Assembly (NCBI GenBank): GCA_963674705.1
Contig: OY771506.1
Location: 2,272,001 to 2,336,000 of the forward strand
Source of the DNA: Phycisphaeraceae bacterium
GTDB lineage: Bacteria; Planctomycetota; Phycisphaerae; Phycisphaerales; Phycisphaeraceae
Direction: 5' to 3'
Length of the DNA: 64,000 nt
Below, one piece after another: positions 27,961 to 60,019 of this stretch. Positions within the stretch are counted from its first letter, which is position 1. Every line of letters begins with the position of its first letter. The notes under the pieces were generated by a model that searched no databases, was not told the origin of the DNA, and saw nothing but the letters and a program-made list of their open reading frames with translations. Both the position numbers and the translations under genes were made by a program.

Positions 27961-28092
27961 CGGAACCTCCTGCGAGGTATAGTTGGGGGCGCGGGCTTAG
28001 GGTAAACTGACGGTTGACAGAGGGCGGTTACTGACGAACGTCTGACCAGTTGAGATACAATCATACCCGGGCAGTAGTCAGGAGGCAGATCA

Positions 28093-29151
28093 GTGGGCGA
28101 AGACATGATTGGCATCGGCTTCATCGGGGCGGGTGGGATCGCCAGGCATCGCCATATCCCTGGATTGAAGGCTGTGCCCGGCGTAAAACTGGTCGCGGTC
28201 TGCAATCGAAGTGAAGTCAGTTCGCGAAAGGCGGCCGCGGAGTTCGGTTTTGCAGAGATAGAGCAGGATTGGCTAGACCTGATCGCACGGGATGATGTGA
28301 ATGCGGTGTTCATCGGGACCTGGCCTTACACGCATTGCGAGATGTCGATCGCTGCGCTCGCGGCGGGAAAGCATGTGTTCTGCCAGGCGCGGATGGCGAT
28401 GAACCTTGCGGAAGCCGAGCAGATGGTGGCCGCCGCACAGGCCAAGCCCGAACTGGTAAACATGTTGTGCCCTCCGCCGCACCGTATGCCGTATGAACCG
28501 TTTGTTCGGACTGCGATCCGCAAAGGGGTGCTGGGTGAACTGCGCGAGGTCGAGGTGGCTTGTCTTGATGCGAGCTGTGACAAACCGGATGTGATTTCCT
28601 GGCGGGAGCGGATCGAGTATTCGGGCAAGCAGGTGATGCAGGTCGGTATCTGGGCGGAATTGCTCAACGCCTGGGTTGGTGAGTACGAGATGCTAAAAGC
28701 GACGTGCCACACACCCGTGCCCTCGAAAACCGGTCCGGATGGCAGGTCCTACACCATCCAGATCCCGCAGGTGGTGCTCATCGAAGGGCGTTTGGTTAAC
28801 GGGGCGTCGATCAATGAACAACATTCCGGTGTCAGCCAGGAACCGCCGATGAATTCGATCACCATCTACGGCTCGGCGGCACGCTTGCGTTACCACATCG
28901 GCGGGCAGTTGCTGTTCGGCAAGACCGGCGAGCCGCTGAAACCCGCGGAGGTGCCCGAACAATTGATGTGTTCCTGGCAGGTGGAATCGAGCTTCATCGC
29001 CGCGGTCCGTGCGGCTCGGGCCGGGGTGCCGCCCCAGCAACGCCGGGTCAGCCCGGATTTTGTGGAGGGTTTGAAGTACATGAAGAAGGTGGAGGCGATT
29101 CATCTGTCGGCCCAGACCGGTCAGGCTGTCAAGGTGTGTGAAGCTGGATGA
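28093..29151 (+). CDS. Gfo/Idh/MocA-family oxidoreductase
   Basis: IGFIGAGGIA, VAVCNRS, AGKHVFCQARMA; GGAGG RBS. Confidence 0.92.
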   Translation: MGEDMIGIGFIGAGGIARHRHIPGLKAVPGVKLVAVCNRSEVSSRKAAAEFGFAEIEQDWLDLIARDDVNAVFIGTWPYTHCEMSIAALAAGKHVFCQARMAMNLAEAEQMVAAAQAKPELVNMLCPPPHRMPYEPFVRTAIRKGVLGELREVEVACLDASCDKPDVISWRERIEYSGKQVMQVGIWAELLNAWVGEYEMLKATCHTPVPSKTGPDGRSYTIQIPQVVLIEGRLVNGASINEQHSGVSQEPPMNSITIYGSAARLRYHIGGQLLFGKTGEPLKPAEVPEQLMCSWQVESSFIAAVRAARAGVPPQQRRVSPDFVEGLKYMKKVEAIHLSAQTGQAVKVCEAG

Positions 29152-29516
29152 GTGAACAGCCATCTTCCGATACAGGCGAGCCGTTGGATGCGGACAAGCT
29201 GACGTGGTCGGTGTTGCTGGGTCGATGGATCGAGTTTGCCCGCGGTGCGTTGGCCTTGCCGGATAACGCACAGGGGCGGGCGTTACGCGATAGCGTGGCT
29301 GACATCATCGCACTCCAGGCGGTATGGTTTGCGTTGCAGCACATCGATGAGCTGGATGCGGATGAAAAAGCGTTGGGTCTGGATCGTGCGGAAGTGTTGA
29401 TCGAACGACACACAGCGTTCATCAACAAGCGGTGGGAAAACCGTGAACTGCCTTCAGAGTTGACATCGCTTATAGCAGATGCGCACGAAGCGATAGCTAA
29501 GTCGCGTTCATCATGA
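29148..29516 (+). CDS. Hypothetical protein
   Basis: 122 aa, ATGA overlap with the upstream stop, host-like codon usage. Confidence 0.75.
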   Translation: MSEQPSSDTGEPLDADKLTWSVLLGRWIEFARGALALPDNAQGRALRDSVADIIALQAVWFALQHIDELDADEKALGLDRAEVLIERHTAFINKRWENRELPSELTSLIADAHEAIAKSRSS

Positions 29517-29632
29517 TCTTTAATTGTTCTAAGTAACATCATGGACTTCGATGTTGACGAATACTGCATAAAAATAAGGTAAAAACGCGAAATAGGCCTT
29601 ACATTTTCCTCTGACTTTGTTATATTGTTCCG

Positions 29633-29793
29633 ATCATCCCATTTGGTACGGAGGCCATGAATCGGATGCAATCACTTCGGACTTCTTTTTCTTTTAGTGA
29701 ACGGGTTCTGTCGACGAGGCAGTCGGCAGTTGTGGAGGACATCATCGTAAGAGGTTAATTGTTTACTGCGCGTAGTTGCGCAGCGTTTTTATT
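29633..29793 (+). ncRNA. Candidate small RNA 1 (GGA-containing)
   Basis: Upstream TTACAT..TGT-TATATT extended -10; five GGA motifs; ends in CTGCGC/GCGCAG hairpin plus T-run. Confidence 0.35.
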
Positions 29794-29829
29794 TATTTGA
29801 TGGGCGCTGATCGTGCCCGACAATCCCAT

Positions 29830-29989
29830 ATAAGAGCCAAGCCCGGATACCGTCTGCTGGAGGGGAGAGCCAGGAGGGAGAGGAATCGTGGCCGGTCCCC
29901 GGGCAAGGATGTGGTGGCAGTGTTGTCACCACGGGACGGGGAGAAAGATACGCACCCCGGTAGAAACCGGCCGGGGTGCTGTTTTTTTT
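29830..29989 (+). ncRNA. Candidate CsrB/Rsm-like small RNA 2
   Basis: TTGATG-16-GACAAT promoter; nine GGA motifs in about 100 nt; strong plus-strand terminator. Confidence 0.45.
29952..29989 (+). terminator. Plus-strand intrinsic terminator
   Basis: GCACCCCGG...CCGGGGTGC followed by TGTTTTTTTT. Confidence 0.8.
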
Positions 29990-30063
29990 GTACTTGTAGC
30001 GGCCGTGTATTTTGAAACGTCAATCAGCAACGGGGCGCGACTAATGGTTGCGGCCTTGCACGG

Positions 30064-30810
30064 TTATGTGTTTTTGAGGATGTCCAGATAGGCCTTGACG
30101 GTAGCAGTCATTCCGAGTTCAAGCGCATCGGCGATCAGTGCGTGGCCGATGGATACTTCCATGATGTTGGGGATGGTGACGAATCGGCCGAGGTTATACA
30201 GGTTCAGGTCATGTCCCGCATTCATGCCCAGTCCCAGATCGGTGGCGCAGGCGGCCGCCTCAGCAAATTTTTTGTATTCATTTTCCAGAACGTCGCCGCC
30301 TTGCTCATATGCGACGGCGTAGCTCTCCGTGTACAGCTCGATCCGATCGGCGCCGGTCTGAGGAACAAGTTTAATCTGCTGCGGATCCGGGTCCATGAAC
30401 AGGCTGACCCGGCAACCTAGTGACTTCAGTTCATCTACGATCGGTTTGAGACGCTCGAGGTTGGATGCGATGTTCCAGCCGTGGTCCGAAGTGGACTGAT
30501 CCGGTGAATCAGGCACCAGCGTGCATTGGTCGGGCTTCACGTTACGGGCGTGGTTCATGAATTCGCCTAGAAACGGGTTACCTTCGATATTGAATTCCCG
30601 GCCGTGGTATTCCGGTTCGGCCAGGAGTTTGGCGATGTCCCCGACATCGTGATGACGGATATGTCGCTCATCTGGTCTGGGGTGCACCGTGATGCCGGCG
30701 CTACCGGCTTGCAGTGCGAGTCGGGCCGAATGGACGACGTTGGGAGTGTCACCTTGCCGTGCATTACGTAAAAGTGCGACTTTATTGACGTTTACGCTCA
30801 GGAGAGTCAT
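30064..30810 (-). CDS. pdxJ: Pyridoxine 5'-phosphate synthase
   Basis: LSVNVNKVALLRNAR, ITVHPRPDERHI, RIELYT, NAGHDL, EVSIGHALI. Confidence 0.97.
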   Translation of the reverse strand: MTLLSVNVNKVALLRNARQGDTPNVVHSARLALQAGSAGITVHPRPDERHIRHHDVGDIAKLLAEPEYHGREFNIEGNPFLGEFMNHARNVKPDQCTLVPDSPDQSTSDHGWNIASNLERLKPIVDELKSLGCRVSLFMDPDPQQIKLVPQTGADRIELYTESYAVAYEQGGDVLENEYKKFAEAAACATDLGLGMNAGHDLNLYNLGRFVTIPNIMEVSIGHALIADALELGMTATVKAYLDILKNT

Positions 30811-30992
30811 GTATTGATTACCAGTGGACCAAGAATGTAGAAAATAACTGAATTATAAAGGGGGGTGGACTTGTAAACCTGTATTTAAGTCCTGTTATCG
30901 TATCGTGATGGTACGATTGTGTCTCAAACGTTAGAAAATCAGATTGATTTATCTTTACTTTTAGTGGGACCCGGGATAGAGTGATATCAGTA

Positions 30993-31247
30993 GTGTAGAG
31001 GCCGACCGGGATGACCGGCCCCCGTGGTGCGGCTTGCTGATGCGAGCCAAACGGTGAGGTCGACCGGACCGGGCCAGCGAGACGGCCCAACGCAACGAGC
31101 GAAGGGCTGAATGGTGAAGCCGGCCGTGTAGTGCCGAGTGGTTCCTGCCGATAAGGGGTTGCGTCAAGCAACAGGGACCCAACCGACGCTGTGCGGCCGG
31201 TCCTTATTGGCAACGACCCCCTTCAATCAATCATCCCGATCTATGCG
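30993..31247 (+). ncRNA. Candidate ~250-nt structured RNA or leader of unknown family
   Basis: GC-rich multi-stem island in an AT-rich spacer; paired ends; upstream TTTACT-17-TAGAGT promoter. Confidence 0.45.
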
Positions 31248-31327
31248 ATACAAGTACGGGTGCGATTTGTTGAACGTTGTAGTAACTGATTCGAGGTAAA
31301 ACGTTTCTGGCAGATCAGGGCGAAGTT

Positions 31328-31729
31328 ATGACCATCATTTGGAAACAGGGATATACCACGGGTTCACCGGAGTTGGATCAGCAGCACCGGGAAATGTTCG
31401 ACATGCTCAACAAGCTGGAGGACATGATTGCTCAGGGGGTCTATGAAGGGCCGAAGGTCGACGCACACCTCAAATCATTGGGCACGTATGTCACGCGTCA
31501 CTTCAGCGACGAAGAGTGCTGCATGGAAAAAGCGCAATGCCCGATGGCCCAAAAGAACAAGCAAGAGCACGAACAGTTCCTTAACAAGTATGTTGAATTA
31601 ACTTCAAAATTCAGCAAGCATCGATCATTACAATCGCTCAAAGAAGTCCATAGCTGGGCGGAATCCTGGACCCATGAGCATATTGCCTTTCTCGACATTC
31701 ATCTGAGAACGTGTATCAACCGGGGATGA
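31328..31729 (+). CDS. Single-domain bacteriohemerythrin
   Basis: W...LDQQH, HFSDEE, EH, W-HEHIAFLD. Confidence 0.88.
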   Translation: MTIIWKQGYTTGSPELDQQHREMFDMLNKLEDMIAQGVYEGPKVDAHLKSLGTYVTRHFSDEECCMEKAQCPMAQKNKQEHEQFLNKYVELTSKFSKHRSLQSLKEVHSWAESWTHEHIAFLDIHLRTCINRG

Positions 31730-31918
31730 GGGTAATCCCTCGCATTTGGATGAAGTCGGCTAGCCAGAACCACGATATAGGTTAGGGTCATCGGACGGTT
31801 GGCGTCCGATAGTACGTGATGGCTGTACGCCTTGCGTTGCGTGCCGCTTGGGTACTTCTACTACTTTGTACATGGTGAATTGGGCCAATCGTATACGGAC
31901 CTGTGCAAGGGGTAGCTG

Positions 31919-34720
31919 ATGTCTGTGCTGGATAGTTACAGATTAAATTCGCTTGGCAGGTTCATCGTGCGCTGGCGCGCGGCATTGCTGGTCGCATTGC
32001 TGTCACTGGGCGCCACGTCGTTTGTCAGTTACTTGGCATGGCGAAACCAAGTCAAAGATCATCATCGTCAGGTCCAGGAACGTGTGACTCAACTCACGCT
32101 TGAAGTCTCAGAACGCCTCAATGATTACGAGATCGCGTTGGAGATGGCGCGTGGTCTATTCATGGCAAGTGATGAAGTCACGGCGGAGGAGTGGCGAAAC
32201 TTTTGCACCTCTGAACGGTTCTTCAAGAATATCCCGGGGACTTACGGGTTTGCATACGTGGACCGTGTCAAGGCACAAGAGCTTGATGGATACGTGCGGG
32301 AAGTCCGTTCACGGTCTGATCCTGACTTCGACGTGTTTGACACGACGCTTTATGAACCCGTTCCGTACGATGATTACTGTGTGATCCGATACAACGAGCC
32401 GATGTTTCGTAATGCCAATACGATCGGCTTGAATGTTGCGTCGATCCCCGCATCTCATGACACCATGAGACGCAGTGTTTTAGACGACCGTGTTGCGGTC
32501 TCGCAAGGATTCAGTCTGCATCAGACGGGGGCGGCGAAAGTTGGGGTCGTTCTTTATCTGCCGCTTTTTGAGCATAATGCCGACACACGGACGGCTGAGT
32601 CACGTTTGGAATCCGTTTCGGGGTGGGTCGCGATGTCGGTTGAGATGTCCGCCTTTATGGCCGGTATCTGGCCTGAAGACTGGGAGGGGGTCAGTAGCGC
32701 CCTGGTTCAGCGGGCATCGGGCAGTGAAGATCGGTTGCTTTATCGGCATTCGATGCAAGACCAAGGCACCGACTGGATGAAGGATAAGCGGGGCGGGGGG
32801 CTGTATCAGGCTTCCTTGCCCGTCAATGATTGGCAGTGGGTGCTTTACGTACATGAATCCAGCCCAAACGCACGAATCGCGTGGTCGCGTGTGTTTCTTG
32901 TGGGCGGTGCCAGCAGCGTGATCAGCTTGTTGCTGGTGTTGCTGGTCTGGTCGCTGACCAGGACGCGTGATCGTGCCAAACAACTGGCGGATGCGTTGAC
33001 CCTATCACTGCGTGAATCTGAACAGCGGTATGCGCTGGCGGTGCACGGCTCGAACGACGGCTTGTGGGACTGGGACCTTGCTACGGGCAGGGTTTACTAC
33101 GCGCCGCGGTGGAAAGAACTTCTTGGTGTGCCGGATGATGAGGTTATTTACACACCTGAAGCGTGGTTCAGCCGAATCTCCTCGGGGTGTCTGGCACGTT
33201 TCCATGCCAAGCTGACCGACCATATCCAAGGCAAGTCCGAACGGTTTGATATCGAATTGGAAATGCATCACGCCGACGGCTCAACGCGTTGGATGCTGTG
33301 TCGGGCGGCCGCGGTCCGTGATGACGACGGTAAAGCGATGCGTATCTCCGGATCACTGGCGGATATTTCCGAACTCAAGCAGGCACAGGATGAACTGCGT
33401 GTCCTGGCGCATCACGACCAACTCACGGGGCTGGCAAACCGTTCGTTGTTCACCGATCGACTCAATCATGCGATTGCACGGGCCAAACGCAACAGCTCGT
33501 ACCGATACGCGGTGTTGTTCCTCGACTTCGACGGTTTCAAAATCATCAATGACAGCTTGGGGCACAGCCTGGGTGACAAATTGCTGTCCGAAATGGCGGA
33601 ACGCATACGTTCATGTGTTCGCGAGGTTGATACGGTTGCGCGGTTCGGAGGCGATGAGTTCGTGGTCCTCATGGATGGGATTCATTCTGCGGACGATGTT
33701 CAGGTTTTATCGCAGCGTCTGCTGGACCACCTGGCGGTGCCGTTCAAATTCGAGACATCCGAAGTCATTTCGACGGTGAGTATCGGGGTGGTGGTCGGTA
33801 CTGAGAACTATGAAGATGCCGACGAGGTGATCCGCGACGCGGATGCGGCGATGTACCAGGCGAAGGCCGGAGGACGTGCGCAATATTGTCTGTTTGACTT
33901 GCAGATGCACACGCAGGCGGTCAGGCGGATGCGTCTGGAACAGGACCTTCGTCAATGCAGTTTTGATGAGCAGTTCCAGGTGTATTACCAGCCGATTGTT
34001 GATCTGGAATCGGGAACGACCGTGGGGTTCGAGGCGCTATTGCGATGGGATCATCCCGAGCACGGGCGGATCGAGCCGGATGAGTTTATCGGGATTGCCG
34101 AGGAGTCGGGCCTGATTGTTTCGCTTGGTGAATGGGTTCTTCGGGAATCGTGCAAGCAGATGGCGGCCTGGCGAGCACGGTTTGATGATGTGTTAGAGAT
34201 GAGCATCAACGTCAATCTTTCCCGGCGACAGATGCTCAGCGCGGAGATATTTGACGTCATTGACCGGGTGCTGGTTGAGACCGGTTTGCCGGCACAGGCA
34301 TTGAAACTGGAGGTGACGGAGAGCGCGGTGATGGATAATCCGCAGGCCATCGTCAGCGTGATGCAGCGCATCCACAAGCTGGGTGTGCGGTTGGCGATGG
34401 ATGATTTTGGCACGGGGCATTCATCACTAAGTTGCTTACATCAGTTCCCCATCGATCAATTGAAGATCGACCGCAGCTTTATTGAGAACATGCAGGAGCA
34501 TCGTGAGTTTGCAGCGGTGATGGACGCGATCGTATCGCTTGCACACTTCCTGCGTTTAGAGGTCGTTGCGGAGGGGATCGAGAACGCCGAGCAATTGTCA
34601 CAGTTGCAGGCGATGGATTGCCAGTACGCACAAGGCTTCTTCTTCGCCAAGCCCATGGCCGCGTCTGTGGCGACAAATTACCTGGCAGGTTTCAGGGATG
34701 ACGCGATCGAGGCGGCCTGA
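31919..34720 (+). CDS. CHASE-PAS-GGDEF-EAL diguanylate cyclase/phosphodiesterase
   Basis: TM-flanked CHASE-like region; GSNDGLWDWD PAS; RxxD (REVD) plus GGDEF; EALLRW; DDFGTG. Confidence 0.94.
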   Translation: MSVLDSYRLNSLGRFIVRWRAALLVALLSLGATSFVSYLAWRNQVKDHHRQVQERVTQLTLEVSERLNDYEIALEMARGLFMASDEVTAEEWRNFCTSERFFKNIPGTYGFAYVDRVKAQELDGYVREVRSRSDPDFDVFDTTLYEPVPYDDYCVIRYNEPMFRNANTIGLNVASIPASHDTMRRSVLDDRVAVSQGFSLHQTGAAKVGVVLYLPLFEHNADTRTAESRLESVSGWVAMSVEMSAFMAGIWPEDWEGVSSALVQRASGSEDRLLYRHSMQDQGTDWMKDKRGGGLYQASLPVNDWQWVLYVHESSPNARIAWSRVFLVGGASSVISLLLVLLVWSLTRTRDRAKQLADALTLSLRESEQRYALAVHGSNDGLWDWDLATGRVYYAPRWKELLGVPDDEVIYTPEAWFSRISSGCLARFHAKLTDHIQGKSERFDIELEMHHADGSTRWMLCRAAAVRDDDGKAMRISGSLADISELKQAQDELRVLAHHDQLTGLANRSLFTDRLNHAIARAKRNSSYRYAVLFLDFDGFKIINDSLGHSLGDKLLSEMAERIRSCVREVDTVARFGGDEFVVLMDGIHSADDVQVLSQRLLDHLAVPFKFETSEVISTVSIGVVVGTENYEDADEVIRDADAAMYQAKAGGRAQYCLFDLQMHTQAVRRMRLEQDLRQCSFDEQFQVYYQPIVDLESGTTVGFEALLRWDHPEHGRIEPDEFIGIAEESGLIVSLGEWVLRESCKQMAAWRARFDDVLEMSINVNLSRRQMLSAEIFDVIDRVLVETGLPAQALKLEVTESAVMDNPQAIVSVMQRIHKLGVRLAMDDFGTGHSSLSCLHQFPIDQLKIDRSFIENMQEHREFAAVMDAIVSLAHFLRLEVVAEGIENAEQLSQLQAMDCQYAQGFFFAKPMAASVATNYLAGFRDDAIEAA

Positions 34721-59935: not shown

Positions 59936-60019
59936 GGGAGAAAGAAAACTAGAAAACTAGAAAGCTAGAAATGCGGGAATACTATCCTTCGATCCCCGAT
60001 ACCTATGAAGAGGCCCGGA

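Follow-up and report, generated by a model that had tools for sequence, protein, structure and literature searches.

On the plus strand of the window, by which we mean the whole 64,000-nucleotide stretch of DNA analysed here, positions 29633-29989 are taken, with somewhat better than even confidence, to hold a conserved non-coding RNA gene whose product likely serves as a decoy (sponge) for small RNAs that share the seed CUUUCUCCCCUCCG. The partner of this RNA is more likely to be RNA than the protein CsrA. Transcription of the RNA, the production of small RNAs from the seed loci and the pairing of both in the cell are what we infer from the sequences compared below.

In the proposed mechanism, as many as three small RNAs carrying the seed would be bound by base-pairing to one molecule of the RNA, and two of the partner small RNAs would arise from the 3'UTRs of the mRNAs encoding hsp20 and an M48 (HtpX-like) protease. 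Pairing would keep the small RNAs off their probable mRNA targets, or promote their decay before they reach them, the presumed targets being the GGGAGAAAG-N3-AUG type of ribosome-binding site in front of genes for PEP-CTERM surface proteins. Sequestration or destabilization of the small RNAs would in this way relieve the repression of the PEP-CTERM genes. A second RNA, located at 941 kb and containing about nine GGAGAAAG repeats, and at least two further RNAs with purine sites would do the same job.

Extent, parts and fold of the RNA

The unit is probably larger than first described and amounts to about 357 nt (29633-29989, +); its homologues, counted from the predicted start, are 334-365 nt long. 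A promoter scan called CTTACA, a spacer of 17 nt and a TG-extended TATATT at 29598-29626 of the plus strand, from which transcription is predicted to start near 29633. All 11 homologues have the -10 core TAnAnT without variation, most of them in the form TGGTATAGT (TGTTATATT in the present genome, at 29618-29626). In most homologues a conserved GTAAAAAATAG element is also seen some 45-60 nt upstream of the -10 element (window 29560-29600), and it may represent a regulator-binding or UP-like site. A sequence-only reading had begun the RNA further downstream, with the promoter TTGATG-16-GACAAT (29797-29824, +). These letters are present on the plus strand (TTGATG at 29797-29802, GACAAT at 29819-29824), but they agree with the consensus at 8 of 12 positions, were not called by the promoter scan and are not conserved, being common only to the present genome and a 97%-identical sister genome.

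The 5' domain (29633-29765, +) comprises a hairpin at 29644-29657 with the loop ACGGAG (29648-29653), a U/C-rich tract and a non-conserved frame of 33 codons (29657-29758). The hairpin motif UGG(U/A)A(C/U)GGA, which comes after the -10 element, is invariant in all 11 homologues. As a peptide the 33-codon frame was discarded, its only tblastn match being in the sister genome and the frames of other genomes being different, and so was a 10-codon frame in clade B, whose peptide is not conserved. The earlier statement that no credible plus-strand gene is present holds across the 11 homologues, among which no plus-strand open reading frame is conserved and the longest frames (44-86 aa) differ in start, start codon and length. 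The domain is followed by a terminator-like element (29766-29796, +), a hairpin of 7 pairs and then the T-run CGTTTTTATT. This form is found only in the present and in the sister genome, the other nine having the hairpin followed by an A-rich linker; in the present genome the internal terminator may split the 5' from the 3' part, and the 3' domain may come from read-through, RNA processing or a weak promoter of its own.

In the 3' part, the RNAalifold consensus (29841-29904, +) pairs 29841-29845 with 29900-29904 in a helix, P1, that encloses a second one, P2, formed by 29854-29857 with 29888-29891. The terminal loop of P2, 30 nt long (29858-29887), is a purine tract. A third hairpin, P3 (29911-29932, +), has nine pairs in the single-sequence fold, and its sequence differs in every lineage while the hairpin itself is kept, three of its four modelled pairs changing on both sides. 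Changes on both sides are likewise found in six of seven P1 pairs and in three of five P2 pairs (model-fitted alignment, 11 sequences). For the whole model, compensatory change occurs in 13 of 26 pairs, the paired cells reach 91.9% as against 31-46% when the partners are slid (11 sequences), and none of 500 shuffles reaches any of the observed measures, figures that are to be read as those of a test favoring the structure, because the model itself guided the alignment. For the 164-nt stretch 29826-29989 a folding energy of -74.8 kcal/mol was calculated, which beats 200 of 200 dinucleotide shuffles (z -4.24).

The unit ends in an intrinsic terminator (29952-29989, +), recognized both by a terminator call and in the alignment, with CACCCCGGUAGAAACCGRCCGGGGUG forming the stem and loop and a U-run after it. 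The strong plus-strand terminator described in the sequence-only reading is thus borne out, with 10 pairs (29952-29979), 8 of them G-C, and then T8. Across the 11 homologues neither the loop nor eight of the ten pairs show any variation, an unusual degree of invariance for which the decoy reading does not account. The terminator loop, together with the purine tracts, is far more conserved than the flanks.

Distribution and genomic setting

The RNA is single-copy in its own genome. A blastn search detected it in 8 of the 10 other members of the genus that were compared, against 0 of 30 genomes from outside it. A covariance model built on nine sequences (R1) and run over 100 family genomes added one further genus, represented by genome G074 (82.6 bits); matches of R1 near 24 bits, in the present genome as well as in family genomes, align over the terminator only. 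Two members of the genus, G001 (76% complete) and G008 (93% complete), gave no R1 match. An exact scan for the terminator pattern over one genome per species (185,579 species) returned 11 stretches in 9 assemblies, the carriers being titled Phycisphaeraceae, Phycisphaerales, Planctomycetota or uncultured bacterium. The assignment to a probable planctomycete, made earlier from the letters, is consistent with these titles, relatives with the same RNA being named as Phycisphaeraceae, Phycisphaerales or Planctomycetota. The same kind of exact-pattern scan, applied to metagenome contigs, yielded 117 stretches. Among the 80 that were retrieved, only L109 is a true homologue (137.7 bits), and the others were set aside as chance hairpins or terminators.

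The order of genes around the RNA is fixed: a GFO/IDH/MocA oxidoreductase, a gene for a protein of 122 aa, a spacer of about 320 nt, the RNA and a convergent pdxJ. These are the conserved neighbors, and the nearness to genes for c-di-GMP and for oxygen sensing (hemerythrin), which the sequence-only reading had mentioned, carries no weight. The 122-aa protein (window 29148-29516, +) belongs to no Pfam family; its gene overlaps the stop of the oxidoreductase, and it is 58-92% identical across the genus.

The fixed order also bears on the question whether there is an independent gene at all, since the stretch could be the 3'UTR or terminator of an operon of the oxidoreductase and 122-aa genes, or a terminator shared with pdxJ, with the purine tracts being incidental. 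The RNA does always lie 3' of the 122-aa gene and in the same orientation, and a metatranscriptome contig crosses the terminator. This contig, the single one obtained from one RNA sequencing run with a relative (10% of sampled words), is 252 nt long with a depth of 3.1 and covers 29870-30120 with 35 differences; as it runs across the terminator into pdxJ, it is uninformative on a discrete RNA. By contrast, all 11 homologues share the invariant -10 element that separates the RNA from the 122-aa gene, the conservation of the purine tracts and the terminator loop stands far above that of the flanks, and the tracts match a seed that is conserved separately. We therefore consider an untranslated region or shared terminator very improbable and regard a gene of its own as the likelier reading.

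Purine tracts, seed loci and candidate targets

Three purine tracts of the RNA are complementary to the seed. Site A, GGAGGGGAGAGC (29859-29870, +), lies in the P2 loop and has a calculated duplex energy of -23.0 kcal/mol with the seed; its GGAGGGGAGA is identical in 10 of 11 homologues. In the same loop, site A2, GGAGGGAGAGGAAU (29873-29886, +), gives -20.0 kcal/mol, and in genome G009 this site reads CGGAGGGGAGAAA, which is a perfect 13-nt complement of the seed. Site B (29934-29952, +), in the linker before the terminator, contains GGACGGGGAGAAAGA (29934-29948) and gives -23.4 kcal/mol. Within it, GGGGAGAAAG (29938-29947) is a perfect 10-nt complement of the seed, and 29938-29952 are a perfect 15-nt complement of the sibling in the hsp20 3'UTR (C1:5104651), at -32.3 kcal/mol. 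Site B consists of purines only in all 11 homologues.

In all, the duplexes of seed and tract lie at about -18 to -25 kcal/mol. Three sites at or below -17.8 kcal/mol are present in 10 of the 11, G074 having two, and for ten homologues 0 of 100 shuffles equal the energy of the best site, the remaining one being equalled by 2 of 100. Folding of the 3' domain by itself predicts that the loop sites are 44-94% unpaired and site B 19-57%, the low accessibility of the latter being due to the U-tail, which pairs with it. Within the genome (both strands), two or more complements of seed 9-mers per 250-nt window are found in 5 windows, including those of this RNA and of the 941-kb RNA.

The way in which the tracts match the seed is informative as to the kind of partner. 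Site A corresponds to seed positions 4-14 and site B to positions 1-10, so that the two, covering different registers, together tile the seed. The conserved blocks are runs of 10-13 purines, including AAAG and GGGG, and are longer than GGA. Substitutions in them are purine-for-purine opposite U, and in M109 one pair of site A has been lost and an AAAG extension gained. Judged on the sequences, such tiling, U-facing substitutions and extended blocks are what base pairing predicts and not what a protein recognizing GGA would require. The seed itself is invariant across genomes and so offers no covariation with the tracts. In a cross-species table of duplexes, pairs of small RNA and decoy taken from one genome are no stronger than those combined from different genomes. 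An extended pairing of 25 bp with the sibling in the htpX 3'UTR reaches -45.9 kcal/mol and is equally strong with other clade-A genomes, and is thus no evidence of lineage-specific co-evolution. A further caveat is that some complementarity to any anti-Shine-Dalgarno-like seed is to be expected of purine tracts that look like ribosome-binding sites. Seed pairing also fails to account for the invariant ACGGA loop of the 5' domain in the six clade-B sequences, which have CGGAC or CGGAU there.

The same complementarity would be expected if the RNA were itself the regulator, its tracts pairing with pyrimidine-rich mRNAs, or if it were the regulated party, with small RNAs controlling its stability and the 5' domain being the functional part. 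The sequence gives no direction to the pairing, and the 5' domain of 200 nt has conserved motifs for which a pure decoy would have no need. However, a molecule with three sites, or with about nine as in the 941-kb RNA with its variable number of repeats, is typical of decoys and not of regulators with a single seed, and we regard a role as regulator or regulated party as rather unlikely.

The 14-nt seed CUUUCUCCCCUCCG stands directly 5' of a terminator at four places (C1:+3196618, +5104651, -4073597 and -234321). Its last 12 bases, TTCTCCCCTCCG, recur across the order: they were found in 14 of 15 genomes and in 5 of 6 families, with 0 matches for the reversed control, and the layout of seed plus terminator is repeated at most of the fetched places. 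At C1:5104651 (+; locus L203), seed and terminator lie 25 nt after the stop of an Hsp20 gene, and at C1:234321 (-; locus L204) 27 nt after the stop of a Peptidase_M48 (HtpX-like) gene; by their position, these two loci are candidates for small RNAs derived from the 3'UTRs of stress genes. At C1:4073597 (-) the seed is part of a free-standing RNA of roughly 75 nt, and at C1:3196618 (+) of a fused RNA. The fused RNA (L172:590-612, C1 about 3196.5 kb) carries CUGCUUGGAGGGGA, 14 nt identical to the start of the purine hairpin of the present RNA in genome G002. Part of the fused RNA may thus be a copy of the present one.

Further candidate RNAs with comparable sites are found elsewhere in the genome. 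A genome-wide scan of GGA density led to the 941.5-kb locus, a second candidate for an intergenic non-coding RNA (C1:941545-941797, +; L158:946-1197), in which a closing helix of 10 bp surrounds about nine GGAGAAAG repeats; a strong terminator is present, and so is a promoter-like region that is conserved. The locus occurs in 10 of 10 genomes of the genus, where the number of its 16-nt repeats varies, and its repeat unit, in the form GGGGAGAAAGA, equals the conserved linker of the present RNA. Another RNA-like locus ending in a terminator (C1:1321650-1321800, +; L206), at 1.32 Mb, has three seed-complementary sites, one of which, GGAGGGGAGA, sits in the loop of the terminator hairpin; this locus is also among the five 250-nt windows mentioned above.

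As for the targets, GGGAGAAAG occurs 38 times in the genome, and 8 of the occurrences sit 3-4 nt before the ATG or GTG start of a frame with 212-613 codons (C1:2803505, 3914798, 5004883, 4120380, 3454135, 3086719, 1691107 and 396468). Six of the eight encoded proteins, 212-297 aa in length, contain a PEP-CTERM sorting domain above the cut-off, and the ribosome-binding sites of the PEP-CTERM genes share the GGAGAAAG-type motif of the 941-kb RNA. A cruder test, counting 8-mer sites before the start codon, showed no excess (84 of 533 vs. 64 of 394 for the reversed-motif control), and for this reason the target set is a lead and not a result. Inside the window, the only other copy of the 9-mer is at 59936 (+), where GGGAGAAAG is followed by AAAACTAG repeats. 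Many tandem arrays of the 7-mer GGGGATT (C1:2811467, 2617700, 1409312, 1143039, 4156600 and others) and one array of the 8-mer GGAAAGCT (C1:3487479) are scattered over the chromosome.

Taken together, these loci allow a wider picture to be drawn, which is tentative and in our opinion possible rather than probable. In the Phycisphaerales there would be a layered RNA-RNA circuit, in which order-wide small RNAs with the 14-nt seed, derived in part from the hsp20 and htpX-like mRNAs of heat and envelope stress, shut down the synthesis of PEP-CTERM surface proteins, and in which one genus evolved at least four decoys as a buffer (this RNA, the fused RNA at 3.20 Mb and those at 941 kb and 1.32 Mb). 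The invariant ACGGA hairpin could tie the orphan CsrA, described below, into such a circuit.

CsrA and the comparison with known systems

The sequence-only reading had proposed the RNA as a candidate Csr-titrating small RNA, citing its GGA motifs. The nine GGA that it reported in about 100 nt are indeed there, across 98 nt (29845-29942), starting at 29845, 29859, 29864, 29873, 29877, 29882, 29907, 29934 and 29940 of the plus strand, and the motifs that it named are found as CAGGAG at 29871-29876, AGGGAG at 29876-29881 and AAGGATG at 29905-29911. Windows of 130 nt with at least nine GGA make up 0.039% of all windows in the 5.54-Mb genome. Over the whole RNA the enrichment in GGA is modest, with P of 0.05-0.46 against dinucleotide shuffles (4 homologues computed) and of 0.00-0.36 against mononucleotide shuffles (all 11 homologues). 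Five of the nine (29859, 29864, 29873, 29877 and 29940) are retained by every one, or almost every one, of the 11 homologues, but AAGGAUG is not, being confined to the present genome and its sister. As to their exposure, four of the conserved GGA are located in the single 30-nt loop and one in the linker, and not in separate short hairpins.

If the RNA were a sponge of the CsrA/Rsm type, its exposed GGA would bind one of three CsrA proteins and titrate it off mRNAs. The genome does encode CsrA in three copies, with PF02599 scores of 91.3, 52.4 and 41.5 bits. The best-scoring one (86 aa) belongs to a flgL-fliW-csrA-flagellin cluster. In the corresponding arrangement of Bacillus (B. subtilis) it is the FliW protein, and not an RNA, that antagonizes CsrA, and the position of this copy beside fliW speaks against an RNA antagonist. 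An orphan paralogue of 71 aa, without an adjacent fliW, is present in 97 of 101 family genomes and could be a partner; since its occurrence extends far beyond that of the RNA, the distribution of this paralogue argues neither way. Canonical CsrA-type hairpins also exist in the genome, one, CCGCAAGGAUGCGG, in the leader of csrA (L001:1451-1464, C1 about 2265.4 kb, 6.5 kb before the window) and one, GACAAUC-AAGGAGG-AUUGUC, in the flagellin leader, where its AAGGAGG loop covers the ribosome-binding site (L001:1874-1893). The best remaining argument for a partner of the CsrA type is the 5' loop A(C/U)GGA, invariant in 11 of 11 homologues, to which may be added GCAAGGAUGU at 29903-29912 in the present genome.

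On the other hand, the GGA are for the most part gathered in a single large loop and in a linker instead of separate short hairpins, AAGGAUG is not conserved, and the AAAG and GGGG runs are needless for a protein that binds GGA and are needed by the seed. The comparison with known families points the same way. Rfam at the gathering score gave 0 matches in the whole window, and a search of 28000-32000 with E up to 10 gave only rnk_pseudo (22.9 bits, gathering 55) and rydB (18.7 bits, gathering 50), the best E being about 1. No match to CsrB, CsrC, RsmX, RsmY or RsmZ was obtained, as would have been expected of a member of these families, nor is there any Rfam match for the seed loci. The 941-kb RNA likewise matches nothing in Rfam significantly, its alignment with RsmY being weak and non-significant (12.1 bits, E 1.5), even if it goes in the direction of a CsrA sponge. 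Among the features tested for membership in the CsrB/Rsm group, the presence of csrA is the only one found, and we judge a sponge for CsrA to be quite unlikely. Of the earlier proposal, the sponge role thus appears likely, whereas CsrA as the titrated partner is unsupported, in view of the FliW-partnered best CsrA and of the 10-13-nt blocks that tile the seed.

As compared with CsrB/CsrC and RsmX/Y/Z of the Gammaproteobacteria, the present RNA is likewise non-coding, terminator-ended and rich in GGA, and its genome contains csrA; the 941-kb RNA shares with them a repeat architecture with variable copy number. Unlike them, the present RNA has no array of short GGA hairpin loops (one conserved ANGGAN hairpin is present in the 5' domain), its conserved unit is longer and complements an RNA seed, and the best CsrA of its genome is FliW-partnered. 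If the decoy reading is true, it would caution that GGA-rich RNAs beyond the Gammaproteobacteria are not necessarily CsrA sponges.

The partner small RNAs, and not the present RNA, invite comparison with CpxQ and others, the 3'UTR-derived small RNAs of envelope stress in enterobacteria. The seed-plus-terminator modules are situated 25-27 nt after the stops of stress genes (hsp20 and the M48/HtpX-like protease), and their processing and targets are putative. The likeness suggests by analogy that small RNAs cut from stress mRNAs might lower the synthesis of envelope proteins.

Full-text searches of the openly accessible literature found no description of a regulatory small RNA, RNA sponge or CsrA antagonist RNA for Planctomycetota. 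Closest by mechanism are RosA of B. subtilis and RsaI/RsaOG of S. aureus, stand-alone sponges of small RNAs with C-rich seeds, the latter for RsaG/RsaD/RsaE. RosA, about 229 nt long, acts as a sponge for RoxS and FsrA; two or three of its single-stranded stretches are rich in G and complement the C-rich regions with which its partners target mRNAs, and it is conserved only in a narrow taxon (PMC8216469). The present RNA resembles RosA in setting three purine tracts against one seed and in being nearly restricted to one genus. No Rfam family was matched, RsaOG included as far as the library covers it, and the RNA can thus be grouped with RosA and RsaI by kind and mechanism only. In contrast to RosA and RsaI, it occurs in another phylum, the seed of its partners is a 14-nt CU tract directly before a terminator, two of the candidate partners are 3'UTR-derived, at least one sister decoy with about nine repeats accompanies it, and it is known here from sequence alone. 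If true, the reading would provide a concrete and testable post-transcriptional circuit in a poorly studied phylum, and sponges of small RNAs with a C/U seed, so far described from Firmicutes and enterobacteria, would have arisen here independently.
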